From contig DATFZT010000205.1 of the NCBI GenBank assembly GCA_035314185.1, forward strand, positions 2,820-66,819: 64,000 nt of DNA. The letters run 5' to 3'. The position numbers and the translations under genes were made by a program. Under the pieces are notes generated by a model that was given only the letters and a program-made list of their open reading frames with translations, ran no database searches and had not been told where the DNA came from. Below are positions 1,898-62,515 of this stretch, in pieces. The DNA comes from Terriglobales bacterium (GTDB taxonomy: Bacteria > Acidobacteriota > Terriglobia > Terriglobales > Acidobacteriaceae). Position 1 is the stretch's first letter. The number at the start of each line of letters is the position of its first letter.

Positions 1898-1939
1898 GCA
1901 ATTGACGATAACAAAAAAGAGACGGGAACGTCCTGCTCG

Positions 1940-3292: not shown

Positions 3293-3345
3293 GCATCGCT
3301 AGCAAGCATTGATCGCGATCGACCAACGACTAACGACCAACGACT
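3249..3345. repeat. Cluster of short tandem word repeats with an inverted repeat
   Basis: gtcgtga x2 (3249-3264), gcatcgYtagcaa x2 plus a partial copy (3280-3315), cgaccaacga x2 (3320-3345). tggtcgttag (3267-3276) is the reverse complement of ctaacgacca (3331-3340). Confidence 0.7.
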
Positions 3346-3372
3346 GCCTCGCGTTACACTACGGGCGCCGTC

Positions 3373-4257: not shown

Positions 4258-4633
4258 TACGGGGTAACAAGACAGCCGAGGCGGAATTTCGTTTTGGCTG
4301 TTCCGCCTCGGATGCCAGGAACGCTTTAGGCCGGTCCGCCACCGACGATGTTCGGCCCCTCGCAATTACGTATTGGCCCGAAGAAGTAGATGGCCGCCAG
4401 CAGATGTTGCTTCAGACCTCCGCCGGAGCCGCGCAAAAAGAAACGCGAAAACCCTGGAGTCATGTCCGCTCTGACCCGAGCAGGATTTTGCGGATCCCTG
4501 GCCTGACACGCGCTCGGATCATTCGGAAAATCCAAAAACAGGTTTACGTTCACGAGCTTGGTGAGATCCCGGAATGCCTCTCGCGCATGGAGGTGGCATT
4601 GATCGTTGGGATCGCGGTCGTGGGCCGGTTCGA

Positions 4634-5254: not shown

Positions 5255-5279
5255 TGGTTTTCTCCTTAATTCTTAGGGA

Positions 5280-7382
5280 TTAGCGCCGTCCGTACGCTGC
5301 AAACGCCGACCAGTAGTAAGGATGAGACGTGCGCGGGTTGGCCAGCATTCTCCGCGAGCTCAGGCGGATGGCATCAGAGACGGTCTGGCCAGAGAGCGCA
5401 TTGTGATAAAAGTCCACTATCAATCCGCGAGTCTCAACGGAGTCCACGGCCCACCGGCTCGCGACCACGTGCGGCACACCGGCACGCACAAAACCATCGG
5501 TGATGCTGTCGAATCCGCTGGAGCCGCCGCTACCGGATGCGGTGTTGCAGGCTGAAAACACCGCCAACTGCAAGCTTTCTGGGTGAAGCTGCCGAATCGC
5601 ATCTGCGTCCAGCAGCCGCGGCGCGTTTGCTTGTCCGGGTTCGCCTCCCAACATCAATCCCGTCCTTTGGGGAGTGGAGAGCGAATGTCCGGCAAAGTGG
5701 AAAACCGCTGTTCCGGGGAAGGCGCTCCGGAGAGCGCTGAGGGTGGCTTCTCCGCCTTTGAGCACCCGCGCGGAATGAAAGCCGCGGGCGACGATGTCTG
5801 TTTCCAGAGCCACATCGGGAAGAGAACTGAGACCATCCGCCAGCGAGGAAGCCGCACTGCCCACCACCAGAGCCCGCAAGTCCGCCGAAATGGTAATTTC
5901 GCTGCGCAGCCGCGTCTCCGAATCCTGACCGAGAGAATGAACAATCGATGCACGCTCGATCAGATAGTGATCGCGCGAATCAAGCAACGCCTCAAAGGGC
6001 ACGCGGGCCAGCCATCCCTCCGCCTCGATCACAAGCGTGCGTCCCGGCGCAAGATGCTGTTCCACTGGACCAATGAGCGCCTCGTACAGGCTACGAGCGT
6101 CCCGGCGCAGCGCGATCAACTCCGAGCTGGGCTCCGAGCACTGAGCGTGGAAATTGGCCGCCAAATCCTGCAGTTCCTGCAGTTCCCGAGGCGATTTCGC
6201 ACTCCAGTACGCGCTTACTCCCCGGTCGTCAAAGACCCAAATGGCGAGGCCATCGGGCAGCGCCGCATAAGCAAGCACCGTCTCGTTGAAGAGAAGAGGA
6301 AGCCGAGCCGACAGCCGCGCTCCGTCGGGCAGGGATGGTGATATCCCCGGACCGCGCGTTCCGGCACGCTGCGGCGCGCCCAGATACCACTCAAATACAT
6401 CGAGCGATTCCTGTTCGCGCCCCTGCACCAGTTCGGCTTCCGCGAGGCCCAGATATACCGAAGCCGCACTTTTGCTCCAGCTGGTTCGACTTTTCTCAGA
6501 CGTCAAAGACGCCAGGCTTTGCTCGGCCAAGCGCAGCGCGGGACGAAAGTCCTGCTCGGCCTCCGCGGCATGATGACTGCGGAGTTGCACTTCGCCCAGA
6601 GTGGAATAAAACATCTGCGCAAGAACATTATTGGGAAATTGACGGACCTCATTCTGCACGCGAGTCAAGCGGCCCAGGGCAGAGTCGAACGCGCTTTGGC
6701 CCGTCTCCGACTGAGCGGTCAGGATTTCGCTCATCAGACGGTTGGCCCGCGTGGCCTCGGTCTGCGGAGCAAGGGTATAGAGCCGAGCGGCTTCCTCGTA
6801 GTGCTGTTCGGCCAACTCGGGCTGATGGGCAGCGCTGGCGGCATCGGCTGCGCTGCTGTGGGCCTCGGCGCGTAACCGAAAATTCTCGCCGGAATCGATC
6901 ACCGCCGCGGCTTCGCGCCAGATTGCCAACTGCAGATTTGCCTGATCTGACTCGGCGGCAAGAGCTTCTTCGGTGTACAGGTTGTAGCCCCGCATGGCGG
7001 GATATTGACCCGACCAGTAACCTTGCAGCCCGGCGTGAACCAGCCTCCAGACGCCCGGCCGGTCACCGGTGTCGAGTTTGCTATCGGCAACAAATCCCAG
7101 GGCCCGCAGATACAGAGCGCCGTAGCCGGACTGCTGCGCCCGGTCCTGCGCGCGATGCACGGTCTTTTCGTAGCCGCCGAGATCGCCCATCAGTACCGAG
7201 CAGATGCCGTCCTCCAATCCCAGCTGAATCTCCACCCAGGGGTACGAATAACGCCTGGACTCCTCGCCTGCGGCGGCCGCCCGGCGCCGGCAGTCTTCGC
7301 TGCGACGCGAGATGTGGTCCGCGAACGACTGCTCGAATTCCGCGCGCAACGCGCCCGCAACGTTGTCGGAAGCGCGAAACAA
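5280..7382 (-). CDS. CHAT-domain (caspase-like) protein with helical/TPR-like N-terminal region
   Basis: The C-terminal region carries the CHAT His/Cys dyad context AVFHFAGHS ... LAVFSACNTASG and ends YYWSAFAAYG. The start is given as TTG; the upstream sequence suggests fusion with the preceding ORF (see findings). Confidence 0.85.
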   Translation of the reverse strand: MFRASDNVAGALRAEFEQSFADHISRRSEDCRRRAAAAGEESRRYSYPWVEIQLGLEDGICSVLMGDLGGYEKTVHRAQDRAQQSGYGALYLRALGFVADSKLDTGDRPGVWRLVHAGLQGYWSGQYPAMRGYNLYTEEALAAESDQANLQLAIWREAAAVIDSGENFRLRAEAHSSAADAASAAHQPELAEQHYEEAARLYTLAPQTEATRANRLMSEILTAQSETGQSAFDSALGRLTRVQNEVRQFPNNVLAQMFYSTLGEVQLRSHHAAEAEQDFRPALRLAEQSLASLTSEKSRTSWSKSAASVYLGLAEAELVQGREQESLDVFEWYLGAPQRAGTRGPGISPSLPDGARLSARLPLLFNETVLAYAALPDGLAIWVFDDRGVSAYWSAKSPRELQELQDLAANFHAQCSEPSSELIALRRDARSLYEALIGPVEQHLAPGRTLVIEAEGWLARVPFEALLDSRDHYLIERASIVHSLGQDSETRLRSEITISADLRALVVGSAASSLADGLSSLPDVALETDIVARGFHSARVLKGGEATLSALRSAFPGTAVFHFAGHSLSTPQRTGLMLGGEPGQANAPRLLDADAIRQLHPESLQLAVFSACNTASGSGGSSGFDSITDGFVRAGVPHVVASRWAVDSVETRGLIVDFYHNALSGQTVSDAIRLSSRRMLANPRTSHPYYWSAFAAYGRR

Positions 7383-9737: not shown

Positions 9738-10850
9738 CTAGGCCAGCAGCTTTGCCGCCTCTTTCGCGTAGTAAGTCAGAATGATGCTGGCCCCCGCGCG
9801 GCGGATACAAATCAGCGATTCCATCATCACCCGTTCCCGGTCGATCCATTGGTTGCGCGCCGCAGCCTCGATCATCGCGTACTCCCCCGACACCTGATAC
9901 GCCGCCAGCGGCAGGTCGAAACGGTCTCGCGCCGCGGCAATCACGTCCAGATACGGCATCGCCGGCTTCACCATGATCATGTCCGCGCCCTCTTCGATGT
10001 CCAACTCGATCTCCCGCATCGCCTCGCGAATGTTGGCCGGGTCCATCTGATAAGAACGGCGATCCCCAAACTGCGGCGCTGAATCCGCGGCCTCGCGGAA
10101 CGGCCCATAGAAGCCGGAAGAAAACTTCGCCGCATAAGAAAGGATCGGCGTATTTTCGAAGCCCGCCCGGTCGAGCTCCCCGCGAATCGCCCCGACCCGT
10201 CCATCCATCATGTCCGAGGGTGCGATGATGTCCACGCCCGCCCGCGCCAGCGAGACTGACGTCCGCGCCAGCAACTCCAGGCTGGCGTCGTTCAGGATCT
10301 CGTACTCCGCCGTAACCGGTGGCGCTGCTGCCGCCGCGGCCATCCGTTCGATAGCCTTTTCTTTTTCCTCAGGACTCTTGACCGCTATCGCCATCGCCTT
10401 GCTCACGTCCATTGCCGCCGCGCCCAGCGATTGCGGCCTGCCCGATTGAGCCACGATGCCGCAATGTCCATGCGACATATATTCGCACAGGCAAACGTCG
10501 CCCATCACCAACACGTCGCGCACTTCGCTCTTGATGGCACGTGCCGCCCTCTGCACGATGCCATCCTCCGCCCACGCGTCCGTAGCCACTTCATCTTTTT
10601 TCTCCGGGAGCCCGAACAAAATAACCGACAACACTCCCAGCGCACGCGTTGCGCGCACTTCTTTCACCGCCTCGTCCACCGAAAGGTTGAAAACTCCGGG
10701 CATGGAGCGCACTTCTTTCCGGATTCCGGTCCCGGGGCAAATGAAGAGTGGATACACGAAGGATTCCGGCGTCAGCCGGGTCTCGCGGACCAGGGCACGC
10801 AGCGTTTCAGTGCGCCGCAATCGACGCAGGCGGTTAGCGGGGAAAGCCAT
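9738..10850 (-). CDS. hemB: Porphobilinogen synthase (delta-aminolevulinate dehydratase)
   Basis: [26 protein letters not shown]..., Zn-site Cys cluster [14 protein letters not shown], active-site region [10 protein letters not shown] and [11 protein letters not shown]. About 40 extra residues after GHCG (see finding). Confidence 0.95.
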
Positions 10851-22655: not shown

Positions 22656-22721
22656 CCTGCCTCCAGCCCCAGCATCGTCACGACTTGAGCCGGCTGCGCA
22701 AAACCCGATGTCGCATTTGAT

Positions 22722-22760
22722 CTTGGGTGGCGCAGCGCTTGAGCGCTGCGGTGACTCAGC
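22722..22760. repeat. REP-like hairpin element, family D variant
   Basis: tcttgggtggcgcagcgcttgagcgctgcggtga; compare gattttgggtggcgcagcggttcaccgctgcggtaa at 30741-30777. Confidence 0.65.
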
Positions 22761-22937
22761 CGCTGAGCTCACACTTTCTGCTCGGGAACCGGCCCTTCCC
22801 GCAGCCCGCCGCAGTCCTCAGTCCCACGCTTCGTAAAGTTATGCAAAGATTTGTCTGAGTCCTGTTCCCCGCACAACTTTCCACTCATAATTCCGTTCAT
22901 AGCTGTAGACAGCTCGTTTCAAAAAAGGAGATCCCCA

Positions 22938-26845: not shown

Positions 26846-26858
26846 ATGGCCCTTCCCG

Positions 26859-26934
26859 TGTCATCCTGAGCGCAGCCGGGCCAAGCGCGATGCGATTGGC
26901 TCGGCGGAGTCGAAGGACTCCTATTCATTCCTAA
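26859..26934. repeat. REP-like element, family E
   Basis: gtcatcctgagcgcagccgggccaagcgcgatgcgattggctcggcggagtcgaaggactcctat is about 90% identical to 32229-32295. Sits in the fabZ-lpxA spacer. Confidence 0.85.
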
Positions 26935-29315: not shown

Positions 29316-30071
29316 CTAGCCGACTTTCTTCCCCAAGCGCTCCACCATGGCATGCAGAGCACGTTGCGTCTGAGGTCTCCACCAGGCTTCAGTGACAGCT
29401 TCAAGTTCCGTTTCAAGATTGTCGAAGAGACCGACCAAATCGGCGCGGGCATTTGCGCGCGTCACTGCCATCGCTTCAGCCGGAAGCGCCAGCACCGCTT
29501 GGCACCACTCCAAGGCACGGCTCACGACGCGCTCGACGGGAAACAATTCGTCCACCAGGCCGACGTTCAAAGCCTCTTGCGGGGAGATCAGCACACCCGT
29601 AACCGCCAACCGTTCTGCCTGACGCGGGCCAACCTGCCGCCGCAGGGCGCGCAGAATTATCGGAGGCAAAACAATCCCCACCTGCACTTCGCTCAGCCCG
29701 AGTTTGAAGTCTCCTTGTGCCCCCACTCGCCAATCGCAGAACAAAGGCAGGACCGTCCCGCCTGCCGGGGCATGACCTGTGATCGCGGCAGCAATCGGAA
29801 TCGGCGAACCGGCCAGCGCCTTGAGCAGAGCATAAAATTCACGCCACAGCGCGGCCAAAGCTGCGCGATCCAAGCCAAGCAGCAGCGGCACATCCAGACC
29901 AGCGGAAAACCTGCCCGGCGACCCCGAAAGAACTAAAGCCCGCGCGCCGTTGTGTGGGGCCGCTTCGACCGCCTGTCGCAGTGCCGCTATCAATTCCAGG
30001 GTGAGGGCATTTACCGGCGGACGATTCAGCCGCAACTCCCGGACCGCTCCGTGGTCGGTCACCAGAATCAT
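29316..30071 (-). CDS. Enoyl-CoA hydratase/isomerase (crotonase) family protein
   Basis: LNRPPVNAL...VLSGSPGRFSAGLDV...AAITGHAPAGG, the crotonase oxyanion-hole pattern. Confidence 0.85.
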   Translation of the reverse strand: MILVTDHGAVRELRLNRPPVNALTLELIAALRQAVEAAPHNGARALVLSGSPGRFSAGLDVPLLLGLDRAALAALWREFYALLKALAGSPIPIAAAITGHAPAGGTVLPLFCDWRVGAQGDFKLGLSEVQVGIVLPPIILRALRRQVGPRQAERLAVTGVLISPQEALNVGLVDELFPVERVVSRALEWCQAVLALPAEAMAVTRANARADLVGLFDNLETELEAVTEAWWRPQTQRALHAMVERLGKKVG

Positions 30072-30123
30072 GCCGGTAGCTTACAACTTTCTTGATTGGA
30101 GAGCGAAGGCTGGCGAGGCAATT

Positions 30124-30270
30124 GATTTTGAGTGGCGCAGCGGTTCACCGCCTTGCGTTCCTGATTTTGAGTGGCGCACGGTTCACCGGGGTTGTACTTG
30201 CCTTTGGGTGGCGCAGCGGTTCACCGCTGCGATAACACATCCTTGATGACTGCGGGCTTTAGCCCCTGAT
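30124..30270. repeat. Array of three family-D REP hairpins plus one family-H hairpin
   Basis: gattttgagtggcgcagcggttcaccgcc (30124-30152), gattttgagtggcgcacggttcaccgg (30163-30189), cctttgggtggcgcagcggttcaccgctgcgataa (30201-30235), gcgggctttagcccctg (30250-30270). Confidence 0.85.
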
Positions 30271-30648
30271 GCGCGCCGCCGCGCACTCCGAGCAAGGACA
30301 AACTTCCCGCAAATAAAACCACGAATAAATCCCCAGATCGTGTCGATCGTTCCACGAAAACTTCAGCGCATATTTGCCCACTGCCTCCGCCGACAGCGCT
30401 TTCACCAACGGCTTGAACATCGGCAAAGTCCCCGGCGCCAGCTTTTCAGGCTCGCCCGGCTTTCGTTTCGCCTTGGTTCGCTCATCCTCGCAAAGCGCGC
30501 AAGGGCAAGCATCCCGCAAAAACGTAAACGTATAGACGGACCGGTGCCCATCCTTCCACTCAATCTCCATCCCCGTCCCCGTCGTCAAATGAATCACCAC
30601 CGACTTGGGATCGTTCCCCACCCGAGGAGTAAAATCCGGCAGCGCCAT
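30259..30648 (-). CDS. DUF971 (gamma-butyrobetaine hydroxylase N-terminal-like) protein
   Basis: Two repeats with Cys pairs: IEWKDGHRSVYTFTFLRDACPCALC and LKFSWNDRHDLGIYSWFYLREVCPCSEC. Confidence 0.7.
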   Translation of the reverse strand: MALPDFTPRVGNDPKSVVIHLTTGTGMEIEWKDGHRSVYTFTFLRDACPCALCEDERTKAKRKPGEPEKLAPGTLPMFKPLVKALSAEAVGKYALKFSWNDRHDLGIYSWFYLREVCPCSECAAARIRG

Positions 30649-30670
30649 AAATTAAAGTATCGCACGCGCC

Positions 30671-30812
30671 AAGCTCGTGTGGTGACGGGGCTCTGTCCCG
30701 TTCCGGCCGGGTGCCCCCCGCGTGCTCTAGATGTTGAACTGATTTTGGGTGGCGCAGCGGTTCACCGCTGCGGTAAGGGTGTTTTCCCAGAGCCGGCTTT
30801 AGGCGCTGCGGT
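30671..30812. repeat. Composite REP array (families C, D and an H variant)
   Basis: aagctcgtgtggtgacggggctctgtcccgt (C), gattttgggtggcgcagcggttcaccgctgcggtaag (D, 30741-30777), gccggctttaggcgctgcggtgag (H variant). Confidence 0.8.
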
Positions 30813-30931
30813 GAGACTGCGCGAAGTGGAAGATACCTTTTTCGCACCGACCACTAAAGCCCCGTGATAACCAACTTCTTCCCAGCCGCGTCTAACAGGT
30901 TTATAAAGTAAAAAGAAAGCAGGAGGGCCCC

Positions 30932-31831
30932 ATGGATCGCAGAAAGTTTCTGCTGGCAGGCTCCGCGGGAGTAGCAGGTGCCTGGGTCGCCCAAAAGTTT
31001 CTCGGCACCAGCGCGCTCAGTAATCGTCTATTCGGCCCACAGTTCGCAGCTCTGCCACCGTTGACGCAGAAGATAGCCGCCTTCGACACCGTAACCTTGG
31101 GCAAGACTGGAATCCGCACCAGCCGTCTGGCCATGGGCACCGGCACCATCGGCACCGGTCATCATTCCAATCAGACCGCGCTCGGCATGAAGGGGCTGTC
31201 GGATCTACTGCTCAACGGCTACGATCACGGCCTGCGTTTTTTTGACTCGGCCGACGCCTACGGAAGCCATCCCCACGTCGCCGAAGCGCTGAAGCATGTC
31301 CCGCGCGACCAGGTCGCGGTCCTCACCAAAACGTTCTCGCGGGATCCGAAGTCTGCCCGCGCCGATCTCGACCGCTTTCGTCGCGAACTCGGCGTCGACT
31401 ACATCGACATCTGCCTGATGCACTGCCTGACCGAAGGCGATTGGACGGAACGCTTCCAGGGCGTGATGGACGTGCTCTCCGAAGCGAAAGAGAAGGGGAT
31501 CATCCGCGCCCACGGCTGCTCCTGTCACTCCATCGAGGCCCTGCGCGCCGCCGCCAAATCGCCTTGGGTCGAAGTGGATTTGGCCCGCATCAATCCGATC
31601 GGCTCGCACATGGACGCCTCGCCCCAGGAAGTCGCCAGCGTTCTGCGTGAAATGAAAGCCGCCGGCAAAGGCATCATCGGCATGAAGATCCTCGGACAAG
31701 GCGATCTCCGCGGCCGCGTCGACGACGCGATCCGCTACGCCCTGTCGCTCGGCGTGCTCGACGCCTTCACCATCGGCGCCGAAAGCAAAGGAGAGCAGGA
31801 AGACTTAATGCGCCGCATCGCTGCCGCATAA
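30932..31831 (+). CDS. Aldo/keto reductase with a twin-arginine signal peptide
   Basis: MDRRKFLLAGSAGVAGAWVA (Tat-like RRKFL), then FFDSADAYGSHP and IDICLMHC, typical of the AKR family. Confidence 0.85.
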   Translation: MDRRKFLLAGSAGVAGAWVAQKFLGTSALSNRLFGPQFAALPPLTQKIAAFDTVTLGKTGIRTSRLAMGTGTIGTGHHSNQTALGMKGLSDLLLNGYDHGLRFFDSADAYGSHPHVAEALKHVPRDQVAVLTKTFSRDPKSARADLDRFRRELGVDYIDICLMHCLTEGDWTERFQGVMDVLSEAKEKGIIRAHGCSCHSIEALRAAAKSPWVEVDLARINPIGSHMDASPQEVASVLREMKAAGKGIIGMKILGQGDLRGRVDDAIRYALSLGVLDAFTIGAESKGEQEDLMRRIAAA

Positions 31832-31943
31832 GCACGCATAAGGAACTGGCAGATGCACAACCGGCAACGCGCAACCGGAAAAACCTTGGCTGAGAAGACC
31901 ACACTTCCGCGATCACTCCCGCTAGAATCTCTCCAGGTTCTCC

Positions 31944-32780
31944 ATGAACACCGTCCGCATCGCCGCCCTCCTCGAACCATTCCTCGAGCAATCGCTCGTG
32001 CTATCTCAACTCGATCAAATATCGACGTACATCGATTTATTACTCCGCTGGAACGCCCGCATCAACCTGACCGCCATCCGCAAAGAAGAAGAAATAGTAA
32101 CCCGCCACTTCGGCGAGTCCTTCTTCCTGGCAAGCCATCTCTTCCCCAAAGAATGTGTGGCGCGGACACTCTTATCCGCGAACGCCGACAGCGCCCAACC
32201 GCTGGAAGATTCACAACTATTAAGCCCTTGTCATCCTGAGCGCAGCCGAGCCGAGAGCGAAGCGATTGGCTCGGCGGAGTCGAAGGACCCCTACCCTTAC
32301 TCCGTGCCCGCGCCGCCGCAGGGAATTCTCCCCGCACCCTCGAATTTTCTGAGCGTCCTCGACATCGGCTCCGGTGCCGGATTCCCCGCCCTGCCCCTGA
32401 AGATCTGGGCACCGCACCTCCATCTCACGCTGATCGAATCGAATCACAAGAAGGCTGCCTTCCTCCGCGAAGTGACCCGTGCACTTACATTGACCGACGT
32501 CAATGTAATCACCGACCGAGCCGAAATTCTAGCCGCCCGCCCGGAGCGTCCCCAAGCCGACGTAGTAACCCTCCGAGCCGTTGAGCACTTCGACGCCATC
32601 CTCCCCCAAGCCGTCACCTTCCTGGCCCCCAAGGCAAGCCTAGCCCTGCTGATAAGCACCACCCAGCTCCCACAAGTGACTACCCTGACCGATGTAAGTT
32701 GGCACGCCCCATTGACTATCCCGCAGTCACGTTCAAGGGTATTACTGGTTGGATACAGGACCGCTGTAGGAACTACATAG
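31944..32780 (+). CDS. rsmG: 16S rRNA (guanine527-N7)-methyltransferase
   Basis: LLLRWNARINLTAIRKEEEIVTRHFGES and SAM motif DIGSGAGFPALPL. It carries a roughly 60-aa insertion containing a REP element (see finding). Confidence 0.8.
   Translation: MNTVRIAALLEPFLEQSLVLSQLDQISTYIDLLLRWNARINLTAIRKEEEIVTRHFGESFFLASHLFPKECVARTLLSANADSAQPLEDSQLLSPCHPERSRAESEAIGSAESKDPYPYSVPAPPQGILPAPSNFLSVLDIGSGAGFPALPLKIWAPHLHLTLIESNHKKAAFLREVTRALTLTDVNVITDRAEILAARPERPQADVVTLRAVEHFDAILPQAVTFLAPKASLALLISTTQLPQVTTLTDVSWHAPLTIPQSRSRVLLVGYRTAVGTT
32229..32295. repeat. REP-like element, family E, inside rsmG
   Basis: gtcatcctgagcgcagccgagccgagagcgaagcgattggctcggcggagtcgaaggacccctac with stem gccgagcc/ggctcggc. The intergenic twin is at 26859-26934. 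Confidence 0.85.
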
Positions 32781-32888
32781 CAGATTTTACCGCAAATAGT
32801 GGTGGACTGCGCCACTTTTGCAGCCATAATATGGTCAGAAGTGGTACATTTATTCATTAATCTCACTATGAGATAGGATCGGGATTTG

Positions 32889-32906
32889 GTGTTCCACGTG
32901 GAACAC
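32889..32906. promoter_or_regulatory. parS-like site 1 (perfect 18-bp palindrome)
   Basis: gTGTTCCACGTGGAACAc; compare the Firmicute/general parS consensus TGTTNCACGTGAAACA. Confidence 0.75.
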
Positions 32907-32961
32907 TTCTCAGTTTTCACAAGGCAACTGGAATGCGAATCCGCCACGGGACGGCCCGATA

Positions 32962-32977
32962 TGTTCCACCCGAAACA
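32962..32977. promoter_or_regulatory. parS-like site 2 (degenerate)
   Basis: TGTTCCACCCGAAACA shares both outer half-site arms with the parS consensus. Confidence 0.55.
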
Positions 32978-33019
32978 TATTCTCCCCTGAAACGCCGAAG
33001 TAGTTGCCGGCGAGCCAAG

Positions 33020-33035
33020 TGTTCCATGTGAAACA
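33020..33035. promoter_or_regulatory. parS-like site 3
   Basis: TGTTCCATGTGAAACA, with 14 of the 15 specified positions of TGTTNCACGTGAAACA, about 85 nt upstream of the parA start. Confidence 0.75.
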
Positions 33036-33120
33036 CTGGATCGTGTTTTGCACAGCAATCGGCATTGATTTCGTGGATGCGTTCGCATATTCTGACCCGC
33101 AACACCAAGAAAACAAAATC

Positions 33121-33915
33121 ATGGGACGTGTCATCGCAGTTGCTAACCAGAAGGGTGGCGTCGGCAAGACTACGACCGCCATCAACCTCGCCGCCTCACT
33201 TGCCGCCGCCGAAGTCAACACGCTGCTGGTGGACTGCGATCCACAGTCGAACTCCACCAGCGGCTTGGGCCTAGTGAAGAGTCCGGAGCGCATCAGCATC
33301 TACGACGTGATCATGGGCGTGGCTTCGGCTGAAGAGGCATTGCAGCTCACCGAACTCGAACAGCTGTGGCTGATTCCATCGCACAAGAACTTGATTGGCG
33401 CGAACCTTGAGCTGGTGGCGGCGGAGCGACGCGAGTATCGTCTGCGCGATGCGCTGGCCAGTTTGCTTGATCGCTTTCAGTTCATCGTGCTGGACTGTCC
33501 TCCAGCGCTTGATCTGCTGACGCTGAACGCGCTGGTCGCCGCGGATGGAGTCTTGATTCCGATGCAGGCGGAGTACTTTGCGCTGGAGGGTGTGTCGGAG
33601 TTGCTCGACACCATCGAGAGAATACGCGGCGAGCTCAATCCTCGGCTGGTGGTTGAGGGCGTGGTGATCACGATGTTCGATGAGCGGACGAACCTGGCGC
33701 AACAGGTGGCCGAGGAGTTGAAGAAGTATTTTGGAGACAAGCTGTGTACGACTACGATCCCGCGGAACATACGGCTGGCGGAGGCTCCGAGCCATGGGCA
33801 GCCGGCGCTGGTGTATGACGTGCGCTCGCGCGGAGCGGAGAGCTACATACGGCTGGCGAAGGAGATCCTGGACCGGCAGGCGGGGATGGCGAGCGGGTCC
33901 GGGGAGGCAGCTTAG
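33121..33915 (+). CDS. parA: Chromosome partitioning ATPase ParA/Soj
   Basis: [24 protein letters not shown] (deviant Walker A). I chose ATG 33121; the upstream part of the track ORF (from 33004) crosses the parS sites. Confidence 0.95.
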
Positions 33916-34037
33916 ATTGATGGACATAAATATTTATGTTAATCGATATAAGTTTGCTCCCGAGAACAACGTCTTAACCACAGGGGGCACAGGGGAACAC
34001 AGGGGCGAACATTTCTTTTGGAGAGGGGAACTGGTTG

Positions 34038-35177
34038 ATGACTACATCGAATGCGGCGATGGTGGATAAGACGATCGCGAAGGCCAGCGAGAAACTGGCG
34101 GAGAAGCGGCGGGCTTTGGGGCGCGGGCTGGAGTCTCTTTTGCCGGGGCCGCGGGTGGTGAATATTCCAGTGGCTCCCGCGGTTCCGCAAGGTACGCGGA
34201 CGGATGGGGCGGCCGATTCTTCGTTGTTTTCATCTCCTTCTTCCTCGACTTCTTCTCTTTCTGCCTCTTCTGCCGAATTCGCTGGTGGACGGCCGGGGGC
34301 GGCCGTCGCTACGCGAGAGCCTGTGGTTCCGGGGACTTTGGATGTTTTGCAGGCGGTGGCTTCGGGGCAGACTGCGGATGGGGAGACGGTGTTTCATCTG
34401 GCGATGGATCAGATTGACCACAATCCGCACCAGACTCGGAGGGAATTCGATCAGGGCGCTCTTCAGGAACTGGCAGACTCGATCGCGGCGCAGGGGGTGG
34501 TGCAGCCGATTGTGGTGCGTCCGGGGAAAGAGGGCCGGTTCACACTGATTCTGGGCGAGCGGCGGATGCGCGCCTCGGAGAGGTTGGGGAACGCGACGAT
34601 CCCGGCAATAGTGAAGCGGGTCTCGGAGCAGCAGGCGGCGGAGATGACGCTGGTCGAGAACCTGCAGCGTGAGGACCTGAATTGCATGGAGCAGGCGGAG
34701 GCGTTCTCGAACCTGAGCACGGAGTTCAAGCTTACGCAGGAGCAAATTGGTGCGCGGGCGGGCGTGTCGCGGGAAAAGGTGTCGAATTTCATGCGGCTAC
34801 TATCGTTGCCGGAAGGCGTGATCGGAGCGCTGCAGAAGGGCAGGTTGACGTACAGCCACGCGCGGGTGCTGTTGACGCTGAAGGATAACGTCCGGATATG
34901 GAAGTACGCGCAAAAAGCGATGGAAGAAAAGATGTCGGTGGCGAAGCTGGAGGATCTGGTGTTGAGACTGAGCGCACCGGTCGGGCTGGGCGACCCAAAT
35001 AAGGGGGGCGGGGCGCGGTGGGTGGATCCAAATGTGAAGGCGGCGCAGCGGTCGCTGGAGGAAGTGTTGGGGATGCGGGTGCGGATCCGGGATCGGAAGG
35101 GACGAGGCAAGATTGTGATTGAGTATGGGACGATCGACGATTTTGAGCGGGTGGTCAGGATGTTGAAGGGGAGGTAG
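34038..35177 (+). CDS. parB: Chromosome partitioning protein ParB/Spo0J
   Basis: RRALGRGLESLLP, IDHNPHQTRREFDQGALQELADSIAAQGVVQPIVVR and LILGERRMRAS (ParB boxes), followed by an HTH. It has a long Ser-rich linker that contains a REP hairpin. Confidence 0.9.
   Translation: MTTSNAAMVDKTIAKASEKLAEKRRALGRGLESLLPGPRVVNIPVAPAVPQGTRTDGAADSSLFSSPSSSTSSLSASSAEFAGGRPGAAVATREPVVPGTLDVLQAVASGQTADGETVFHLAMDQIDHNPHQTRREFDQGALQELADSIAAQGVVQPIVVRPGKEGRFTLILGERRMRASERLGNATIPAIVKRVSEQQAAEMTLVENLQREDLNCMEQAEAFSNLSTEFKLTQEQIGARAGVSREKVSNFMRLLSLPEGVIGALQKGRLTYSHARVLLTLKDNVRIWKYAQKAMEEKMSVAKLEDLVLRLSAPVGLGDPNKGGGARWVDPNVKAAQRSLEEVLGMRVRIRDRKGRGKIVIEYGTIDDFERVVRMLKGR
34287..34316. repeat. REP family-A hairpin (reverse orientation) inside parB
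   Basis: ggacggccgggggcggccgtcgctacgcga is the reverse complement of tagggacggccgcccccggccgtcc (22610-22634) with 2 mismatches. Confidence 0.75.
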
Positions 35178-35221
35178 CGCAGGTTTCAGAGGTTCAGAGT
35201 TTTTGTTTCAGAGGAATCTGA

Positions 35222-35645
35222 TTGTGCCACGCGGGACTTGTGCCTGATCCCATTTCCAGGCCGACTGCTAAGCAAACCCTGCTGCTGATATTGCTGCCGA
35301 TGCTGGGGGCGGTTTTTTGTCTTCGGCTTTATCTGCACCTGGTGCGGGTTCAGCATGTTTATCCGGGCGGATATCTGGTTCATCATTTGTTTGTTGGGGT
35401 GTTGATCGAACTGCCTGCAGCATTCATTTTGGCTTTTGGTGCGCGCAACCGAGTGCGGGCATTTTTGGCGTTTGGGGGCTTTGGGGGTTGGTGCGGGGAT
35501 GGTTCTGGATGAGGTGACTTATCTGGTGGCTACTCAGGCCAGCGATCGCGATTATGTTTCTCCGGTTTCGCTGGGTGGTTCGGTTGGGTTGGTTTCGTTG
35601 GCGACGATCTTGTTGGTGGGGATTTATTGGGCGCGGCGGGATTGA
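35222..35645 (+). pseudogene. Small polytopic membrane protein split by a +1 frame break
   Basis: ORFs 35222-35512 and 35436-35645 overlap in different frames and both are hydrophobic. The break maps to the duplicated tttgggggc/tttgggggt at 35471-35488. Confidence 0.35.
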
Positions 35646-35690
35646 GGCTTACGCGGCCCTGAAGGGCCGCTCTTCCACGGGGACCCATAC
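35646..35690. repeat. REP-like element, family G (reverse orientation)
   Basis: gaggcttacgcggccctgaagggccgctcttccacgggg is the reverse complement of ccgtggaagagcggcccttcagggccgcgt at 27751-27780. Confidence 0.85.
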
Positions 35691-36069
35691 ATCCTTGCGC
35701 GGGAGCAACTGGTGCCGTCCCTTGCGGGACTCGGGCTTTGCCACTTTCGCTTACCCGGCACTTGCGTGCCGGAAGCGGCGGAACAGGAAAGCCCCGCCCG
35801 TTCGCGGCTGGGGCGCACGCTGGCGACGGGGAGGAATCTTGCGAGTAATCATTGGAATGAGCCTCCCTTTGGAGTTGCGAATTGGAGTACGGTCTTCAGT
35901 CGTTTCATGGAAGACCTCCTCGGCAGATGCTCTTCTCCCACTTTTTACTGTGCTGATTCTCCCTTTGGTTTTGGCGCACTCATTGGGAACTTGCAGAGGG
36001 AATCATTAGAGTAACAAGTGGAACGGTTCGCGCAATTTGGCGGGGATTTCTGCTGCAATCTGCTTCTCT

Positions 36070-39738: not shown

Positions 39739-39802
39739 GGAGGCCGAGCTACGCTCGGCTTGGACGGGCGAGGCGCCCGTCCCCACACTAGCCGTCACCA
39801 CA
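39739..39802. repeat. REP-like hairpin element, family B
   Basis: ggaggccgagctacgctcggcttggacgggcgaggcgcccgtccccacac with stems gccgagc/gctcggc and ggacgggcg/cgcccgtcc. Copies listed below. Confidence 0.85.
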
Positions 39803-39807
39803 CTTGG

Positions 39808-50597: not shown

Positions 50598-52058
50598 TTA
50601 CTTTCCGATGCAGAATGTGCCGAAGATGAGGTTGAGGATGTCGTCGGTGGTGGTGGCGCCGGTAATTTCGTCGAGGGGGCGCAGGGCGGCGTAGAGATCG
50701 AGCAGGAGCATCTCGTGGGGGACTCGGGCAGCTACGGCACTGGTGGCGGCGGCGAGCGCGGTTAGCGCGTCGCTGACTAGTTTCTGGTGGCGAACGCTGG
50801 TCAGGAAGCCGGATTCCTGCTGGGCGGTGGAGTCTCCGGCCGCGTGGTGGAGAATGGCGGCACGGAGGGCGGGGATGCCTTCGCCGGTGAGGGCGGAGGT
50901 GGGGATTACGGGCGTCGTCGGCGTTGCCGAGCTGCTCCACCCCGTCAACCCAACACCGGGCTTGTCGGGGACCCCGGTGCGCTCGGCTGGACGGGCGAGG
51001 CGCCCGTCCCCACACGTGCCGTCTCCACGCTCGGCCAGCAGGTCGCATTTGTTTTCTACTACTATCGCTGGGCGGGCTTCGATCTGGCGCAGTACTTCTT
51101 GGTCTTCTTCGTTCAGGGGCTGAGTTTTATCGATTACCACGAGGACTAGGTCGGCATCGGCCAAGGCTTCCATTGATTTCTTGATGCCGATACTTTCGGC
51201 TTCGGCGTCGTTTGGGGCGCGACGGATGCCGGCGGTGTCCACCAGTTCCACAGGAATTCCACCGATGGAGACGGTTTCGCTTACCAGGTCGCGCGTGGTG
51301 CCGGGCTCGGCGGTGACGATGGCGCGCTCACGCTCGACGAGGCGATTGAAGAGGCTCGATTTGCCTACGTTCGGACGACCTACGATGGCCAGGGTCAGTC
51401 CCTGGTGAACGAGCTTGCCGTAGGTGAAAGAGGCGGCTAGTTGTTGCAGTGGCGCTTCGATCTTCGCTATGCGATCAAGGATGGTGGCGTCTTGCGCTAT
51501 GGAAACGTCGTCTTCGGCGAAGTCGATGCCGGCTTCGAGCAGGGCGATCAGGTCCACTAAATCTTTCTTGATGGGCTTCAGGCGATTGGACAGCGCTCCT
51601 TCTAATTGCTGGGCGGCCACTTTCGCCTGGAATAGAGTTTGCGCGTCGATGAGGTCGCGGACGGCTTCGGCCTGGGTCAGGTCGAGGCGTCCGTTGAGGA
51701 AGGCGCGCATGGTGAATTCTCCGGGCTCGGCTAGACGGGCCCCGCGGGCTAGGGCTAGCTCGACAATGTGGCGCAGGACTACGGGGGAGCCGTGGGCGGA
51801 GATTTCTATGATGTCGTCGGTGGTGTAGGAGTGGGGCTTGGCGAAGTAGGTGACTATGACTTCGTCGATGCGGGTGGGAGGTGTGGTGGAGGGGTCGATC
51901 AGGTCGCAGTGGAGTGCTCGGTTGGGTTCGAGGTCGCGACTTAGGCGCAGCATGGGCTGGGCTATTGCTCGCGCTCCAGGACCGGCCAGGCGGACTACGC
52001 CTATGCCACCGCGTCCGGGCGGGGTGGCGATGGCGACTATGGTGTCATCGAGATTCAC
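50598..52058 (-). CDS. mnmE: tRNA modification GTPase MnmE
   Basis: [23 protein letters not shown]1 [10 protein letters not shown]3 DTAG, G4 NKCD, and C-terminal FCIGK. 486 aa, with an extra loop encoded by a REP element. Confidence 0.95.
50976..51036. repeat. REP family-B element inside mnmE
   Basis: ggtgcgctcggctggacgggcgaggcgcccgtccccacacgtgccgtctccacgctcggcc, the same element as 39739-39802, 56197-56248, 61315-61346 and 62464-62515. Confidence 0.85.
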
Positions 52059-53649: not shown

Positions 53650-55476
53650 TTGGCTGAATTTAATAATCCTCAACAAGAACCCGGGATGGAGCGCAGGCTG
53701 CTGGTGGTGTTTGCGCTTACGTTTCTGGTCATCATGCTGTTCCAGCCACTTTTGAAGAAGTATGGGCCGCAGCCTCCGGCGAAGACGGAGAGTGAGAACG
53801 CTGCCGGGCTTCGCCCGGCCGTACAGCCGGGGGCGGCTGTCGCTACGCAGAATCCGGCGCAGATCTTGGCGCAACGTAAGCAGGCCGATCTCCCTCCGGG
53901 CATAAAGGTGATACGCGATTCGAGCCCGGTGCAGGCGACGAGCGAGCGCGAGACAGTGGTTGAAAATGACGTGTATCGAATCGTTTTCACCAATCGCGGC
54001 GCACGGGTGAAGTCGTGGGTGCTGAAGAAGTACACCGACGATAAAGGCGGACAGCTTGAATTGGTAAATGCAACGGCGGCGGAGAAGTATGGATATCCGC
54101 TGACGTTGTGGACGTATGACGAGGCGCTGCGAGACAAGGTGAACTCGGCGCTGTACGTGGGGTCGCACTTCGCAACCAGGACCGATACCGCCGGCGCCTC
54201 TCCCCTCGGTGCCAGCTACACCGCTCCCACGGAAGTCGTCTTCGGATATTCCGACGCCGATCTCTCGGTGCGGAAGACCTACACGTTCGACGCCAGCACC
54301 TATGTGGTTGGGGTGAAGACGGCAGTCACTCAGAAGGGTGCGCAGGTCGCGGCGTTTCCGATGTGGCCTGCGGGGTTCGGCGCGGACATGACCGGGCCGC
54401 AATACGCGTCTGGGCAGATCGTTTATCAGTACGACGACAAGGTTGAGCGGCTGGCGATCAAGAAGATCAGCGGCGGCGGGACGCTGCAGGGACCGTTCCA
54501 CTGGGCAGGATTGTCGGACCAGTATTTCGCGGCAGTGTTCTTGCCGGCGGATCCAAAGAACGCGGCGATGGTGACGCTGCGGAATGCGATTGAAATTCCG
54601 CATGGCGGGTCCGATACGAAGCAGATGGACAAGGTGGACGTGCTGGGCGCGGCGGTGGGGAACGAGAGGGGCGCGAGCGATGTCCGAGTGTATGTGGGTC
54701 CTAAGGCGCTGGCGGATTTGGAATCGGTTTCGGTGCCGGGGATTACGGGCGCGGAACCGGACTTGCGGGCGATCATCGACTTTGGCTGGCTGGGAATCAT
54801 CGCGCGGCCGCTTTTTTTGTGGTTGAAGTGGATGTACAGCCACATCGTCCGTAATTGGGGCTGGGCGATTCTGCTGCAGACGCTGGTCATCAACCTGGCG
54901 CTGCTGCCGCTGCGGCTTTCGCAGATGAAGTCGATGCTGAAGATGCAGCGGGTGGCGCCGCAGATCAAGGCGATCCAGGAAAAGTACAAGAAATACAGTT
55001 TGCGTGATCCGCGCAAAGCGGAAATGAACACGGAAATTTCGGCGCTGTACAAAAAGGAAGGCGTGAATCCGGCGGGTGGATGTCTGCCGCTGGTGATCCA
55101 GATGCCGTTTCTGTTTGCGTACTACCGGATGCTGAACGTGGCGATGGATCTGCGGCACGCGCCGTGGCTATGGATTCATGATCTCTCGGCGCCCGATCCG
55201 TGGCACATTCTGCCGGTTGCGATCATCATCACCATGCTTGTGATGCAGCGGATGACGCCGCAGGCGGGCATGGATCCGGCGCAACAGAAGATGATGAACG
55301 TCATGATGCCGGGGATGCTGGGCATCATGAGCTGGAACTTGCCGGCGGGGTTGGGCTTGTACTGGTCCGCGGGTCAGCTGATCGGGATCGTACAGCAGTC
55401 GGTGATGAATCGCACGTCGCTGGGGCGCGAGATGCGCGAGATGATGGAGAAGCGGGCGCGGAAGAAAGAGAGATAG
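53650..55476 (+). CDS. yidC: Membrane protein insertase YidC
   Basis: 608 aa with an N-terminal TM segment and a large periplasmic domain. Conserved core GWAILLQTLVINLALLPL, MQRVAPQIKAIQEKYK, NPAGGCLPLVIQMPFLFAYY and WNLPAGLGLYW. Confidence 0.95.
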   Translation: MAEFNNPQQEPGMERRLLVVFALTFLVIMLFQPLLKKYGPQPPAKTESENAAGLRPAVQPGAAVATQNPAQILAQRKQADLPPGIKVIRDSSPVQATSERETVVENDVYRIVFTNRGARVKSWVLKKYTDDKGGQLELVNATAAEKYGYPLTLWTYDEALRDKVNSALYVGSHFATRTDTAGASPLGASYTAPTEVVFGYSDADLSVRKTYTFDASTYVVGVKTAVTQKGAQVAAFPMWPAGFGADMTGPQYASGQIVYQYDDKVERLAIKKISGGGTLQGPFHWAGLSDQYFAAVFLPADPKNAAMVTLRNAIEIPHGGSDTKQMDKVDVLGAAVGNERGASDVRVYVGPKALADLESVSVPGITGAEPDLRAIIDFGWLGIIARPLFLWLKWMYSHIVRNWGWAILLQTLVINLALLPLRLSQMKSMLKMQRVAPQIKAIQEKYKKYSLRDPRKAEMNTEISALYKKEGVNPAGGCLPLVIQMPFLFAYYRMLNVAMDLRHAPWLWIHDLSAPDPWHILPVAIIITMLVMQRMTPQAGMDPAQQKMMNVMMPGMLGIMSWNLPAGLGLYWSAGQLIGIVQQSVMNRTSLGREMREMMEKRARKKER

Positions 55477-56196: not shown

Positions 56197-56248
56197 CAGG
56201 CCGAGCTGCGCTCGGCTGGACGGGCGAGGTCGCCCGTCGCCACACGAC
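56197..56248. repeat. REP-like hairpin element, family B
   Basis: gcaggccgagctgcgctcggctggacgggcgaggtcgcccgtcgccacacgac, 3' of jag and upstream of dnaA. Confidence 0.85.
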
Positions 56249-56527: not shown

Positions 56528-57955
56528 ATGTCTCTCACCAGTTCCGCCATTATTCCGAATCCGTGGGTGCGCATCCTTGACGCGCTGGAAAAGAAAGTCA
56601 ACCGACACTCCTACGACACCTGGTTGAAGCCGACACGGTACAGCCACGCCAGCAATGGAATTTTGTACGTGCGCATTCCGACCGCTGAGTTCCGCCACGT
56701 AAGCGACAAGTACGCAGACCTGATTCAGGAAGCGGTGGACAACCTTGGGCTGGGATACGAGGATGTCAAATTCGTTACCGCCGAGGACGATCCTTCGAAC
56801 ACGCCGATCCGGCATAACGGCGGGCTGTCGGCTCATAGTTCGAACATTGGCTCGAGCGGCGGTCCCAATGCTGGTCCGGGTCAACAGACAACGCAGGGGT
56901 TGCATCCGGCGCAGGGACGGTTCGACTGGGACAGTGCGGCGCAACTGAATCCTCGCTACACGTTTGACGCGTTCGTGATCGGCAGCGGCAACCAGTTCGC
57001 GCACGCGGCTTGCCAGGCGGTGGCGGAGCGTCCCTCGAAGGCCTACAACCCGCTGTTCCTGTACGGGGGCGTGGGCATGGGCAAGACGCATCTGATGCAG
57101 GCGATCGGACATGAGATCAAGCGGCGGACGCCGCAGGCGGCAATCTGTTACGTGTCGAGCGAGAAGTTCACCAACGAGATGATCAACTCGTTGCGCTACG
57201 ACAAGATGATCAGCTTCCGGGATAAATTCCGGACCATGGATGTGCTGCTGATTGACGACATTCAGTTCCTGGCGCAGAAAGAGCGGACACAGGAAGAATT
57301 CTTCCACACGTTTAATGCGCTGCACGAATCGATGAAGCAGATCGTAATCGCGAGCGATCGACCGCCGAAAGAGTTGGCGGAATTCGAGGATCGCTTGCGC
57401 AGCCGGTTTGAGTGGGGACTGATTGCCGACATTCAGCCGCCGGACCTGGAGACGAAAGTCGCCATCCTGCAAAAAAAGGCGGAGCAGGAACGGGTCACGT
57501 TGCCGACGGATGTGGCGTTATTTATCGCAACGAATATTCGTTCGAACGTTCGGGAGTTGGAAGGTGCGCTGATCCGGCTGGTGGCGCATTCTTCGCTGAT
57601 CGGGGCTGAGATCACGCTGCCCTACACCCAGCAGGTGCTGAAGAATTTTATCGATTCGCAAGCACGCAAAGTGACTATTGAATCCATTCAGAAAGCGGTA
57701 GCTGAGCAATTCGGGCTGCGCCTGGTGGAGATCAAGGCGAAAAATAATTCGCGATCGATTGTGTATCCGCGGCAGATTGCCATGTACCTAGCCAAGCATC
57801 TCACGGAAGCTTCCCTGCCTGAAATTGGACGCCAGTTCGGGGGTAAGCACCACACTACGGTCTTGCATTCCGTGGACAAGATTGAAGAGGTTCGCAAGAA
57901 CGACAAGGATTTGAACAGATTGCTCAATAAACTGACCGAGCAATTAGGCTCGTAA
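56528..57955 (+). CDS. dnaA: Chromosomal replication initiator protein DnaA
   Basis: YTFDAFVIGSGNQFAHAA, Walker A LYGGVGMGKTHL, DVLLIDDIQFL, and domain IV RSIVYPRQIAMYLAKHLT...GGKHHTTVLHS. Confidence 0.97.
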   Translation: MSLTSSAIIPNPWVRILDALEKKVNRHSYDTWLKPTRYSHASNGILYVRIPTAEFRHVSDKYADLIQEAVDNLGLGYEDVKFVTAEDDPSNTPIRHNGGLSAHSSNIGSSGGPNAGPGQQTTQGLHPAQGRFDWDSAAQLNPRYTFDAFVIGSGNQFAHAACQAVAERPSKAYNPLFLYGGVGMGKTHLMQAIGHEIKRRTPQAAICYVSSEKFTNEMINSLRYDKMISFRDKFRTMDVLLIDDIQFLAQKERTQEEFFHTFNALHESMKQIVIASDRPPKELAEFEDRLRSRFEWGLIADIQPPDLETKVAILQKKAEQERVTLPTDVALFIATNIRSNVRELEGALIRLVAHSSLIGAEITLPYTQQVLKNFIDSQARKVTIESIQKAVAEQFGLRLVEIKAKNNSRSIVYPRQIAMYLAKHLTEASLPEIGRQFGGKHHTTVLHSVDKIEEVRKNDKDLNRLLNKLTEQLGS

Positions 57956-61261: not shown

Positions 61262-61346
61262 GCCGGGCTTTGCCCGGCTGGACGGCCGAGGCGGCCGTTC
61301 CTACGTGAGCATCTTGGACGGGCGAGTCGCCCGTCCCCACACAAGC
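61262..61346. repeat. Composite REP (reverse family A plus family B)
   Basis: gccgggctttgcccggctggacggccgaggcggccgttcctacgtgagcatcttggacgggcgagtcgcccgtccccacacaagc, between the ridA start and the ruvB stop. Confidence 0.8.
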
Positions 61347-62407
61347 TAGAACAACGAGCTTTGGCGGCGGTTGGGCGTGATTCCGAAATGTTCGTACGCG
61401 AGCTGCGTTGCCACTCGGCCTCGGGGCGTGCGATTTAGAAAGCCAATTTGAATCAGGAAGGGCTCGTAGATTTCTTCGATGGCGTCGGGCTCTTCAGCTA
61501 GCGCCGCGCCCAGGGTGTTCAGGCCCACCGGTCCACCCTGATATTTCTCGATGATCGTGAGCAGGAGCTTGCGGTCGACTTCGTCGAAGCCGTAGCGATC
61601 AACTTCGAGCATGCTGAGCGCGGACTGGGCGGTCGGCAGATCAATGGAGCCGTTGGCTCGCACCTGGGCGTAGTCGCGCACGCGGCGCAGCAGGCGGTTG
61701 GCGATGCGCGGTGTTCCACGGGAGCGGCTGGCGATTTCAATGGCTCCGGGACGATCGATGCTGACGCCTAGAATTTCGGCGGAACGCTCTACGATTACGC
61801 GCAGGTCGTCGTGGGTGTAGAACTCGAGGCGCAGGAGCAAGCCGAAACGCGAGCGCAGTGGTGCGGAGAGCAGTCCGGCGCGCGTAGTGGCGCCGATGAA
61901 GGTGAAGGGCTTCACGTCCATGGTGTGGGTGCGCGCGGACGGACCTTGGCCGATCATAATGTCGAGCTTGTAGTCCTCGAGCGCGGAGTAAAGGATCTCT
62001 TCGAGCGCGGGCTGCAGGCGGTGCACTTCGTCTATGAAAAGCACCTGGCGGTCGCGGAGATTGGTGAGGATTGCGGTGAGGTCCCCTTTGATTTGCAGCG
62101 TGGGGCCGGAGGTCTGCTGGAAGGCGGCGCCGAGTTCGTTGGCGATGATGTTGGCGAGCGTCGTTTTGCCCAGGCCGGGCGGTCCGTAGAGCAGGACGTG
62201 GTCGAGCGCTTCGCCTCGGGATTTCGCGGCTTGGATGGCTACGTCCAGATTCTCTTTTACTTTAGCTTGGCCGATGAATTCCTGCAGACGCTGCGGGCGA
62301 AGCTTTAGCTCGAAAGAGGAATCGTCCTCGACCGGGGCGGCGGAGACGAGACGGTCTTTTGTGTGGGCCGGGAGATGGAGCGCGGGATTGTCTTTGGCGG
62401 CGGACAC
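61346..62407 (-). CDS. ruvB: Holliday junction branch migration ATPase RuvB
   Basis: [19 protein letters not shown], Walker [21 protein letters not shown] and [16 protein letters not shown] chose GTG 62407 because the longer track ORF (to 62506) begins inside a REP element. Start uncertain. Confidence 0.9.
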
Positions 62408-62463
62408 TGAAGGCGATGGTAAAGCGAAAAGCGGAATCAAGCAATTGTTCCCGCCGAAACCGT

Positions 62464-62515
62464 GCGGAGCTTCGCTCCACTGGACGGGCGAGTCGCCCGT
62501 CCCCACACAAGCGAC
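62464..62515. repeat. REP-like hairpin element, family B
   Basis: gcggagcttcgctccactggacgggcgagtcgcccgtccccacacaagcgac; the core is identical to 61315-61346. Confidence 0.85.

Follow-up and report, generated by a model that had tools for sequence, protein, structure and literature searches.

A composite REP element, probably inserted in frame, in the G4-G5 loop of the tRNA-modification GTPase MnmE of a Terriglobales bacterium

How a palindromic repeat that lies mostly between genes comes to sit in frame within the gene of a core tRNA-modification GTPase is the question raised by the mnmE gene of a Terriglobales bacterium (GenBank assembly GCA_035314185.1), in a 64-kb stretch of contig DATFZT010000205.1 (positions 2,820 to 66,819) that we refer to, at its whole length, as the window. 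The gene (50598..52058, minus strand) encodes a protein of 486 aa from a GTG start, and the DNA between its G4 and G5 motifs belongs to a family of repetitive extragenic palindromic (REP) elements that is dispersed over the same window. The comparisons reported here, which are comparisons of sequence, make it very probable that this DNA is a complete composite REP of the GTAG/GTGG type, which would have been inserted in frame into an ancestral surface loop of ~18 aa and would be translated as a disordered and tolerated extension of 30 residues.

The host gene is recognised from its open reading frame (ORF) and from matches to Pfam (TrmE_N, MMR_HSR1 and MnmE_helical), to the NCBIfam MnmE models and to PDB entries; its product aligns end to end with TrmE of Thermotoga maritima (1xzp; E=6e-96), is 94% identical to that of one relative and has the full complement of features by which an MnmE/TrmE protein is known, namely a TrmE_N domain, a G domain within the helical domain and a C(I/V/L)GK end. 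All motifs are intact: G1 GRPNVGKS at 227-234, G3 DTAG at 274-277, G4 NKCD at 336-339, G5 SAL at 388-390 and the C-terminal CIGK. The coding region of the G4-G5 loop (50898..51041, minus strand) specifies residues L340-T387, and 25 gap columns are needed at this spacer in the HMMER alignment with the T. maritima protein. A first-pass annotation of the window had described a spacer of ~48 residues, intact GTPase motifs with CIGK and a REP-derived peptide in the minus-strand reading frame of mnmE, all of which can be read directly in the translation, where the spacer counts 48 aa. The deposited copy of the protein (P0002, 451 aa) begins at Met36 and so lacks residues 1-35 (51954-52058); the conserved N-terminus shows the GTG at 52058 to be the true start, and the deposited gene call is truncated.

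The repeat-derived DNA in mnmE amounts to a 90-nt composite REP at 50926-51015, corresponding to residues 349-378, with a further 17 nt of partial repeat adjoining on its 5' side. On the coding strand (minus throughout) the loop DNA runs from CTGCTGGCC through the partial 5' repeat of the REP foot, GAGCGTGGAGACGGCAC (51016..51032; 17 nt encoding ERGDGT, an extension also seen at 39789-39807), to hairpin-1 with its GTGG foot, GTGTGGGGACGGGCGCCTCGCCCGTCCA (50988..51015; an exact match to the repeat core, found also by hairpin scan, that encodes CGDGRLARP), and then to a long-form hairpin-2 (50926..50987), the outer arms of which, GCCGAGCGCA (50978-50987) and GCAGCTCGGC (50926-50935), are split by a 42-nt inner hairpin module, CCGGGGTCCCCGACAAGCCCGGTGTTGGGTTGACGGGGTGGA (50936..50977; 14 encoded residues), before the loop ends in AACGCCGACGACGCCCGTAATCCCCACC. 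The inner module lies between two copies of GCA within hairpin-2, which may be either a 3-nt duplication, such as the target-site duplication that goes with terminal inverted repeats in a MITE, or simply a part of the extended stem. The first-pass annotation had delimited a 61-nt element at 50976-51036; it named the repeat correctly, but its boundaries give way to those of the composite and its adjoining 17 nt, and the inner hairpin was overlooked because the 5' arm of hairpin-2 sits at 50926-50935, to the left of 50976.

Each module of the element folds as would be expected of a REP. Hairpin-1 forms a 9-bp stem with a 3-nt loop (-12.2 kcal/mol, z=-4.4), hairpin-2 together with its inner module forms one extended hairpin (-21 kcal/mol, z=-3.9), and the 90-mer as single-stranded DNA forms two hairpins (-34 kcal/mol, z=-5.1). 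The tetranucleotide foot that characterises REPs is GTAG in copies of the D9 type and GTGG in the family to which the mnmE copy belongs, and GTGG is counted here as a variant of the GTAG foot. The mRNA region of 163 nt, taken as a whole, is no more stable than its shuffles (z=-1.06), the significance being confined to the individual modules, and an Rfam search of the whole window at gathering thresholds returned no match. The 90 nt are divisible by three, and the reading frame, G5 and CIGK are kept downstream of them, as in-frame insertion entails; the short REP form is open in 6/6 frames and the long form of the window in 5/6, so that unit lengths of 45 and 90 nt, combined with few stop codons, would make many insertions translatable.

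The membership of this DNA in a dispersed repeat family is evident already within the window. The 28-nt core TGGACGGGCGAGNCGCCCGTCCCCACAC recurs exactly at 39761, 50988 (in mnmE), 61315 and 62481, for an expectation of 0 in shuffles, with variants at 56217 and 61272, and over 47 nt the mnmE copy shares 89% identity with that at 39761 (family D2). The canonical short unit, seen at 39739-39807 and 56197-56248, consists of hairpin-1 (a GTGG or GTAG foot and a 9-bp stem) followed by a hairpin-2 of the form GCCGAGC GCA GCTCGGC. The window holds 11 copies that are dispersed and mainly intergenic (8 of them), as is usual for REPs, among them, on the minus strand, the one nearest to the mnmE copy, a short form with both hairpins (39739..39807), one in the jag-dnaA interval (56197..56248), two tandem hairpins 3' of ruvB (61272..61346) and one 5' of ruvB (62464..62515). 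The earlier claim that the repeat occurs at four intergenic sites is thereby borne out, both in its coordinates and in the intergenic position of all four copies. The mnmE element and the tandem copies (those of L002 and those at 61272/61308 in the window) are in direct orientation and lack the inverted pairing of REPINs.

The long form with its inner module was at one point a candidate for a sequence specific to mnmE, given that a BLAST search of the window and 80 related loci from GTDB species representatives (1.6 Mb of DNA) gave no match outside three mnmE loops, those of the window, L001 and L003. This was overturned by a metagenome scan with CCGGGGYCCCCGWYAAGCCCGGT, a sequence of the inner module, which found it in at least 119 contigs. 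In at least 68 of 103 distinct metagenomic contexts the module occupies the identical place inside hairpin-2, usually after hairpin-1, in surroundings that are unrelated and mostly intergenic; only 2 matches fall within mnmE (L098, L151), 6 are nested in another host hairpin, and 3 (L152, L155, L159) stand alone and in frame in a conserved M28-peptidase-like coding sequence (..FANQLRGDPNKPKPGLSGTPGKKRDGYSVW..). An architecture shared across unrelated contexts thus makes the mnmE element an ordinary member of a multicopy family of long-form REPs.

The orthologues compared were the 120 closest MnmE proteins, from metagenome-assembled genomes (MAGs) of Terriglobales, with 73-94% identity and lengths of 428-556 aa, ordered by average-linkage clustering, which gives a rough ordering only. 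The G4-G5 loop mostly measures 14-24 aa in the more distant proteins, which are 73-82% identical outside it, against 26-102 aa in the clade of at least 85% loop-masked identity, where it almost always consists of translated repeats that are also present in the window. Orthologues without an insert, represented by the outgroup loops, T. maritima and E. coli, have a gap at this site in the alignment; the possibility raised in the first-pass annotation, that REP-free orthologues have an equally long loop of similar sequence, is not what we find, their loops of ~14-24 aa being near in length to those of E. coli and T. maritima. The short loops of the outgroup (SSQFSVLSSQ, SGQWSVTSGQ) often themselves consist of heptamer microsatellites, (CAGTTCT)n or (CAGTGGY)n, in L021, L038, L066, L041, L042 and L023, and the same heptamers also form intergenic tandem arrays in those loci.

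Within the clade the peptides read from the loop include CGDGRLARP(AERSSA / SRAEPGRVSP), AHVGTAALGCPAERSSA, CGDGALPRP, CGADTPVREAPQGQ, AQRFSAG... and CGADTPVREAP, and at many loci the loop DNA has further copies outside mnmE, in the same or in related loci. The same REP type is found in two reading frames (L002 versus L005), REPs occur in reverse orientation (L011, P0112) and as tandem and nested copies, and truncated, decayed or deleted remnants are present as well (L006, L007, L010, P0031), all of which argues for independent events. The loop is occupied by repeats across the whole Terriglobales clade, and the insertion is not particular to the genome of the window.

The insertion of the window has orthologues with the same 3' junction in L200 (P0001; an NCBI assembly) and in the P0016-like L098 (JGI), and L202 (P0004) shares that junction with a short form from which the inner module is absent; the insertion is inherited in this small lineage. 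Because the shared insertion is recovered from independent assemblies of three sources (NCBI, JGI and ENA), the suspicion that the insert is an assembly artefact, voiced in the first-pass annotation, can be put aside. The nearest loci by flanking DNA, L201/P0003 and L203/P0006 (6.3-6.4% divergence), have this position filled by different REPs; loop content does not track relatedness, and it follows either that turnover at the site outpaces the divergence of the gene or that loop alleles recombine.

As to what becomes of the insert in the protein, an AlphaFold2 model was built from 58 sequences, with a mean predicted local distance difference test score (pLDDT) of 65 and a predicted TM-score (pTM) of 0.41. 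Its best structural matches are MnmE entries, the G domain reaching a target TM-score of 0.70 against 2gj8, and it places beta5 at 331-336, a short helix at 339-344, coil at 345-380 (pLDDT<50) and beta6 at 384-386, before G5; in this prediction the REP-encoded segment forms a disordered coil at the surface, with beta5/G4 before it and beta6/G5 after it. G-domain dimerisation is mediated by the switch regions, and in Ras-like G domains the stretch after G4 is found on the other side of the fold from these; by analogy the MnmE loop would point away from the dimerisation face. The MnmE-MnmG interfaces seen by cryo-EM comprise the helical-domain loop E171-G187, M1-D5, R107-N119, the hinge helix and the swivel helix (PMC12397908); the G4-G5 loop is not among the interfaces of that study. 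The idea of the first-pass annotation that MnmE carries a surface loop derived from selfish DNA is supported by the identity of the repeat family, by the short loops of REP-free orthologues and by the coil predicted in the low-confidence AlphaFold2 model.

The arrangement of the copies in the window offers an indication of how they may have spread. GC skew turns from negative to positive at ~32-34 kb, adjoining parA/parB (window 30000-36000), a flip that probably marks the region of the replication origin; dnaA lies at 56528-57955. In 11/11 window REPs the strand that bears GTAG/GTGG changes with the flip, being plus for the copies on its left and minus for those on its right, regardless of the direction of the host or flanking gene, a polarity that fits a replication-coupled single-strand mechanism. 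A rule by which REP orientation is strictly set by replication direction is contradicted by L010 and L012, in which opposite orientations occur within one mnmE gene. REPs might be mobilised as single-stranded hairpins, by a HUH transposase of the REP-associated tyrosine transposase (RAYT) type, at replication forks; with units of 45 or 90 nt and few stop codons most insertions would be translatable, and purifying selection would let copies survive only in structurally permissive loops. An occupied site may then turn over by further insertion, nesting, deletion and gene conversion with genomic copies, and such turnover and conversion would also keep the embedded copy near the master sequence of its family.

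Several points weigh against the explanation favoured here. The overall confidence of the AlphaFold2 model is low; a search for RAYT-like ORFs (HuH...Y..NP motif, ORFs of at least 150 aa) found none in the window and the 80 related loci (1.6 Mb), and the assignment of mobilisation to a HUH Y1 transposase is accordingly taken from the REP literature (PMC3733652, PMC6006769); and loop type does not follow the protein tree, which leaves inter-lineage recombination and repeated insertion inseparable. A further one concerns conservation. Between the window and L200 or L098 the mnmE DNA that flanks the loop shows 8-10% divergence over all sites and 17-20% at third-codon positions, whereas the 90-nt REP shows only 1/90 and 2/90 differences, so few that their binomial probability is ~1e-6 if the third-position rate is applied and 0.004-0.006 with the all-site rate; by hand comparison, the adjacent 27-nt non-REP 5' part of the loop (in which the repeat at 51016-51032 is contained) differs at 7/27 positions between the orthologues. 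Hairpin-1 is identical in L003, L004 and L009 and has one difference in L001, at a flank divergence of ~15% for L003 and L001. A passive insert should decay, and these figures therefore call for gene conversion or concerted evolution, re-insertion or selection on the hairpins; the sequence comparison points to homogenisation or selection at the level of DNA behind the conservation of the embedded REP.

One way to accommodate such conservation, which the near-identity of the REP and of hairpin-1 amid diverging flanks and the thermodynamic strength of the hairpins would favour, is that selection keeps the embedded REP, whether for a structure that it forms as DNA or RNA (one that pauses translation between beta5 and beta6, stabilises the mRNA or binds a host factor or RAYT) or for a functional peptide loop. 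We nevertheless consider selection of this kind unlikely, given that lineages differ in the REP family, frame and orientation found at the site and the peptide is not conserved clade-wide, that some copies are truncated or decayed (the four remnants named above), that neither the unremarkable stability of the 163-nt mRNA region nor the Rfam search speaks for a structured RNA, and that concerted evolution with genomic copies accounts for the conservation equally well. A single ancient REP insertion in the ancestor of the clade, with diversity arising by in-situ mutation and homologous exchange of loop alleles only, would explain why 13/14 ingroup loci with DNA share the orientation and place of the REP and why two recurrent 3' tail haplotypes (..AERSSATP..VIPT and ..SPAEPNSPPRIPT) are spread across the tree; it is rendered improbable by the occurrence of the same REP type in two frames and in reverse, by tandem and nested copies, by unrelated families in the loop (the REKWGT type, the AQRFSAG type and the heptamer microsatellites) and by loop states that are not interconvertible by point mutation. 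Last, that the genome is GC-rich and that the relatives come from metagenomes are the only grounds on which one might invoke a chance similarity of GC-rich, low-complexity coding sequence, a chimera of assembly or binning, or an mnmE pseudogene, and exact 28-nt matches where none is expected, 89% identity over 47 nt, the same junctions from three sources, an intact ORF with all motifs and 94% identity to a relative make this extremely improbable.

The G4-G5 loop is also not the only coding site at which such elements are read. A hairpin census revealed a second repeat-filled site in the MnmE of many relatives, in the N-terminal domain between CDLI(D/E)P and RIDEVVV, with up to ~60 extra aa and REPs in both orientations; it is occupied in L004, L005, L007, L009-L012, L027, L035, L038, L040, L044, L045, L051, L056 and L072, at locus positions ~10170-10250 (6868-6892 in L009), and in the window it has baseline length and is unoccupied (residues 52-62, ~51873-51905). 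In the window, yidC (53650-55476, plus strand) contains in its N-terminal region an in-frame GTAG-type REP with both hairpins (53803..53848, minus strand), encoding AAGLRPAVQPGAAVAT, at a site that is also occupied in the YidC of L005, L006 and L008, and parB (34035-35177, plus strand) contains an in-frame, antisense REP hairpin (34286..34314, minus strand) that follows the N-terminal RRALGRGLESLL motif, precedes the ParB_N domain and is lacking in the orthologues. Among relatives, MnmG, the partner of MnmE, has in-frame REPs at two sites (L074, L034, L043, L050, L069) and Tgt has one or two before LFGIVQGG (L074, L055, L069, L043). Across the REP sites of yidC, parB, MnmG and Tgt the orthologues show gaps or unrelated sequence, the identity of each gene having been checked with Pfam in one representative (window ParB, L005 YidC, L074 MnmG and Tgt). 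With mnmE excluded, roughly a third of the strict hairpin matches in the sampled loci lie inside real genes, a share that would be unusually high were it to apply to whole genomes.

A rather doubtful extension of these observations is that the two MnmE loops and those of MnmG, Tgt, YidC and ParB are clade-wide landing pads, in which REPs stay active within the genomic REP population, are kept at the master sequence by re-insertion, gene conversion or selection on the hairpin instead of decaying, and have maybe acquired a role. Were it true, selfish hairpin DNA would be continuously rewriting the surface loops of core tRNA-modification and cell-cycle proteins, and the role in question could be to make translation pause or, in the DNA itself, to provide a docking site.

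Some further features of the window and its relatives deserve mention in their own right. The longest ruvB ORF (386 aa) runs 5' through the REP at 62464-62515 (62380-62506), an extension that is probably spurious and illustrates how stop-free REPs inflate ORF calls; a 645-aa ORF across the REP at 24619 was rejected as a gene, being an arginine-rich antisense artefact. Other, unrelated repeats in the window are the GGGTGGCGCAGCGGTTCACCGCTGCG hairpins, in 4 copies (22705-22761, 30120-30242, 30727-30783), and a 69-nt GTCATCCTGAGCG...GAAGGAC element, in 2 copies (26855-26923, 32225-32293). In L200, the contig of the closest relative, positions 1-6484, just 5' of mnmE, hold genes for a family-B DNA polymerase (1027 aa), Cas1 (491 aa) and helix-turn-helix proteins in a casposon-like arrangement that is absent from the window.

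Elements of this kind have precedents, and the first-pass annotation had likened the mnmE insert to the Rickettsia palindromic elements (RPEs), reportedly described by Ogata and colleagues in 2000 as selfish palindromic DNA that lies in frame in conserved housekeeping genes and is tolerated as surface segments. RPE-1 measures ~100-150 nt, and its hosts have reduced, intracellular genomes. Going by this reported description, the likeness consists in in-frame residence in housekeeping genes and absence from orthologues elsewhere; the present elements differ in being REPs of 45-90 nt, in the large genomes of free-living soil and peat bacteria, with rapid turnover at one site, and given the different phylum and length, membership in the RPE families is unlikely. 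The comparison with RPEs hence stands as a functional analogy and not as a designation of the nearest known class, which is that of the GTAG-type REPs (PMC3733652). With the latter (Di Nocera, De Gregorio and Rocco 2013, PMC3733652) our elements have in common a short, GC-rich and imperfectly palindromic sequence that carries a GTAG/GTGG foot on one side, and they are likewise multicopy; most copies fall between genes, and the minority within known genes are read in frame and encode 15-30 aa. In-frame intragenic REPs of the GTAG and CGTC types have been reported from Opitutus terrae, Thauera, Xanthomonas recB and others, with REPs at about the same recB site in two Xanthomonas species, in a study that also mentions the Rickettsia RPEs (PMC3733652). 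In contrast to that catalogue, which lists neither the host phylum (Acidobacteria, Terriglobales) nor mnmE as a host gene, we find a two-hairpin unit in which the loop of hairpin-2 may hold a further, inner hairpin, and the same two loops of one protein filled clade-wide by several families.

With the REP populations of the REPIN/RAYT system (Bertels and Rainey; PMC6006769) the present family shares near-identical hairpins around a master sequence and, as with RAYT-mobilised REPs, a polarity relative to replication direction in the window that would be expected of single-stranded DNA mobilisation; unlike REPINs, which are inverted doublets, the window units are direct or single. The Class 3 TnpA(Y1) reported for Acidobacteria is associated with atypical flanking structures that have a CnGA foot, not GTAG (PMC6006769). 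In-frame intragenic REPs are thus already known, and what the Terriglobales mnmE case adds is a phylum and a gene, together with clade-wide recolonisation by several families.

These findings bear on the handling of sequences as well as on the biology of the group. The lengths and alignments of MnmE, MnmG, Tgt, YidC and ParB are inflated in Terriglobales MAGs, and phylogenetic markers and domain models should mask the repeats, for which the REP peptides (CGDGRLARP..., HVGTAALGCPAERSSA...) can serve as flags of repeat-derived segments. The strong DNA-level conservation of the embedded copies also provides a tractable test of concerted evolution against selection on REPs. For the organisms themselves, the residence of selfish DNA in coding sequences is extended to Acidobacteria living free in soil and peat, and to a universally conserved GTPase, MnmE, in which one permissive loop has been recolonised, and differently so, even among relatives that are more than 92% identical.

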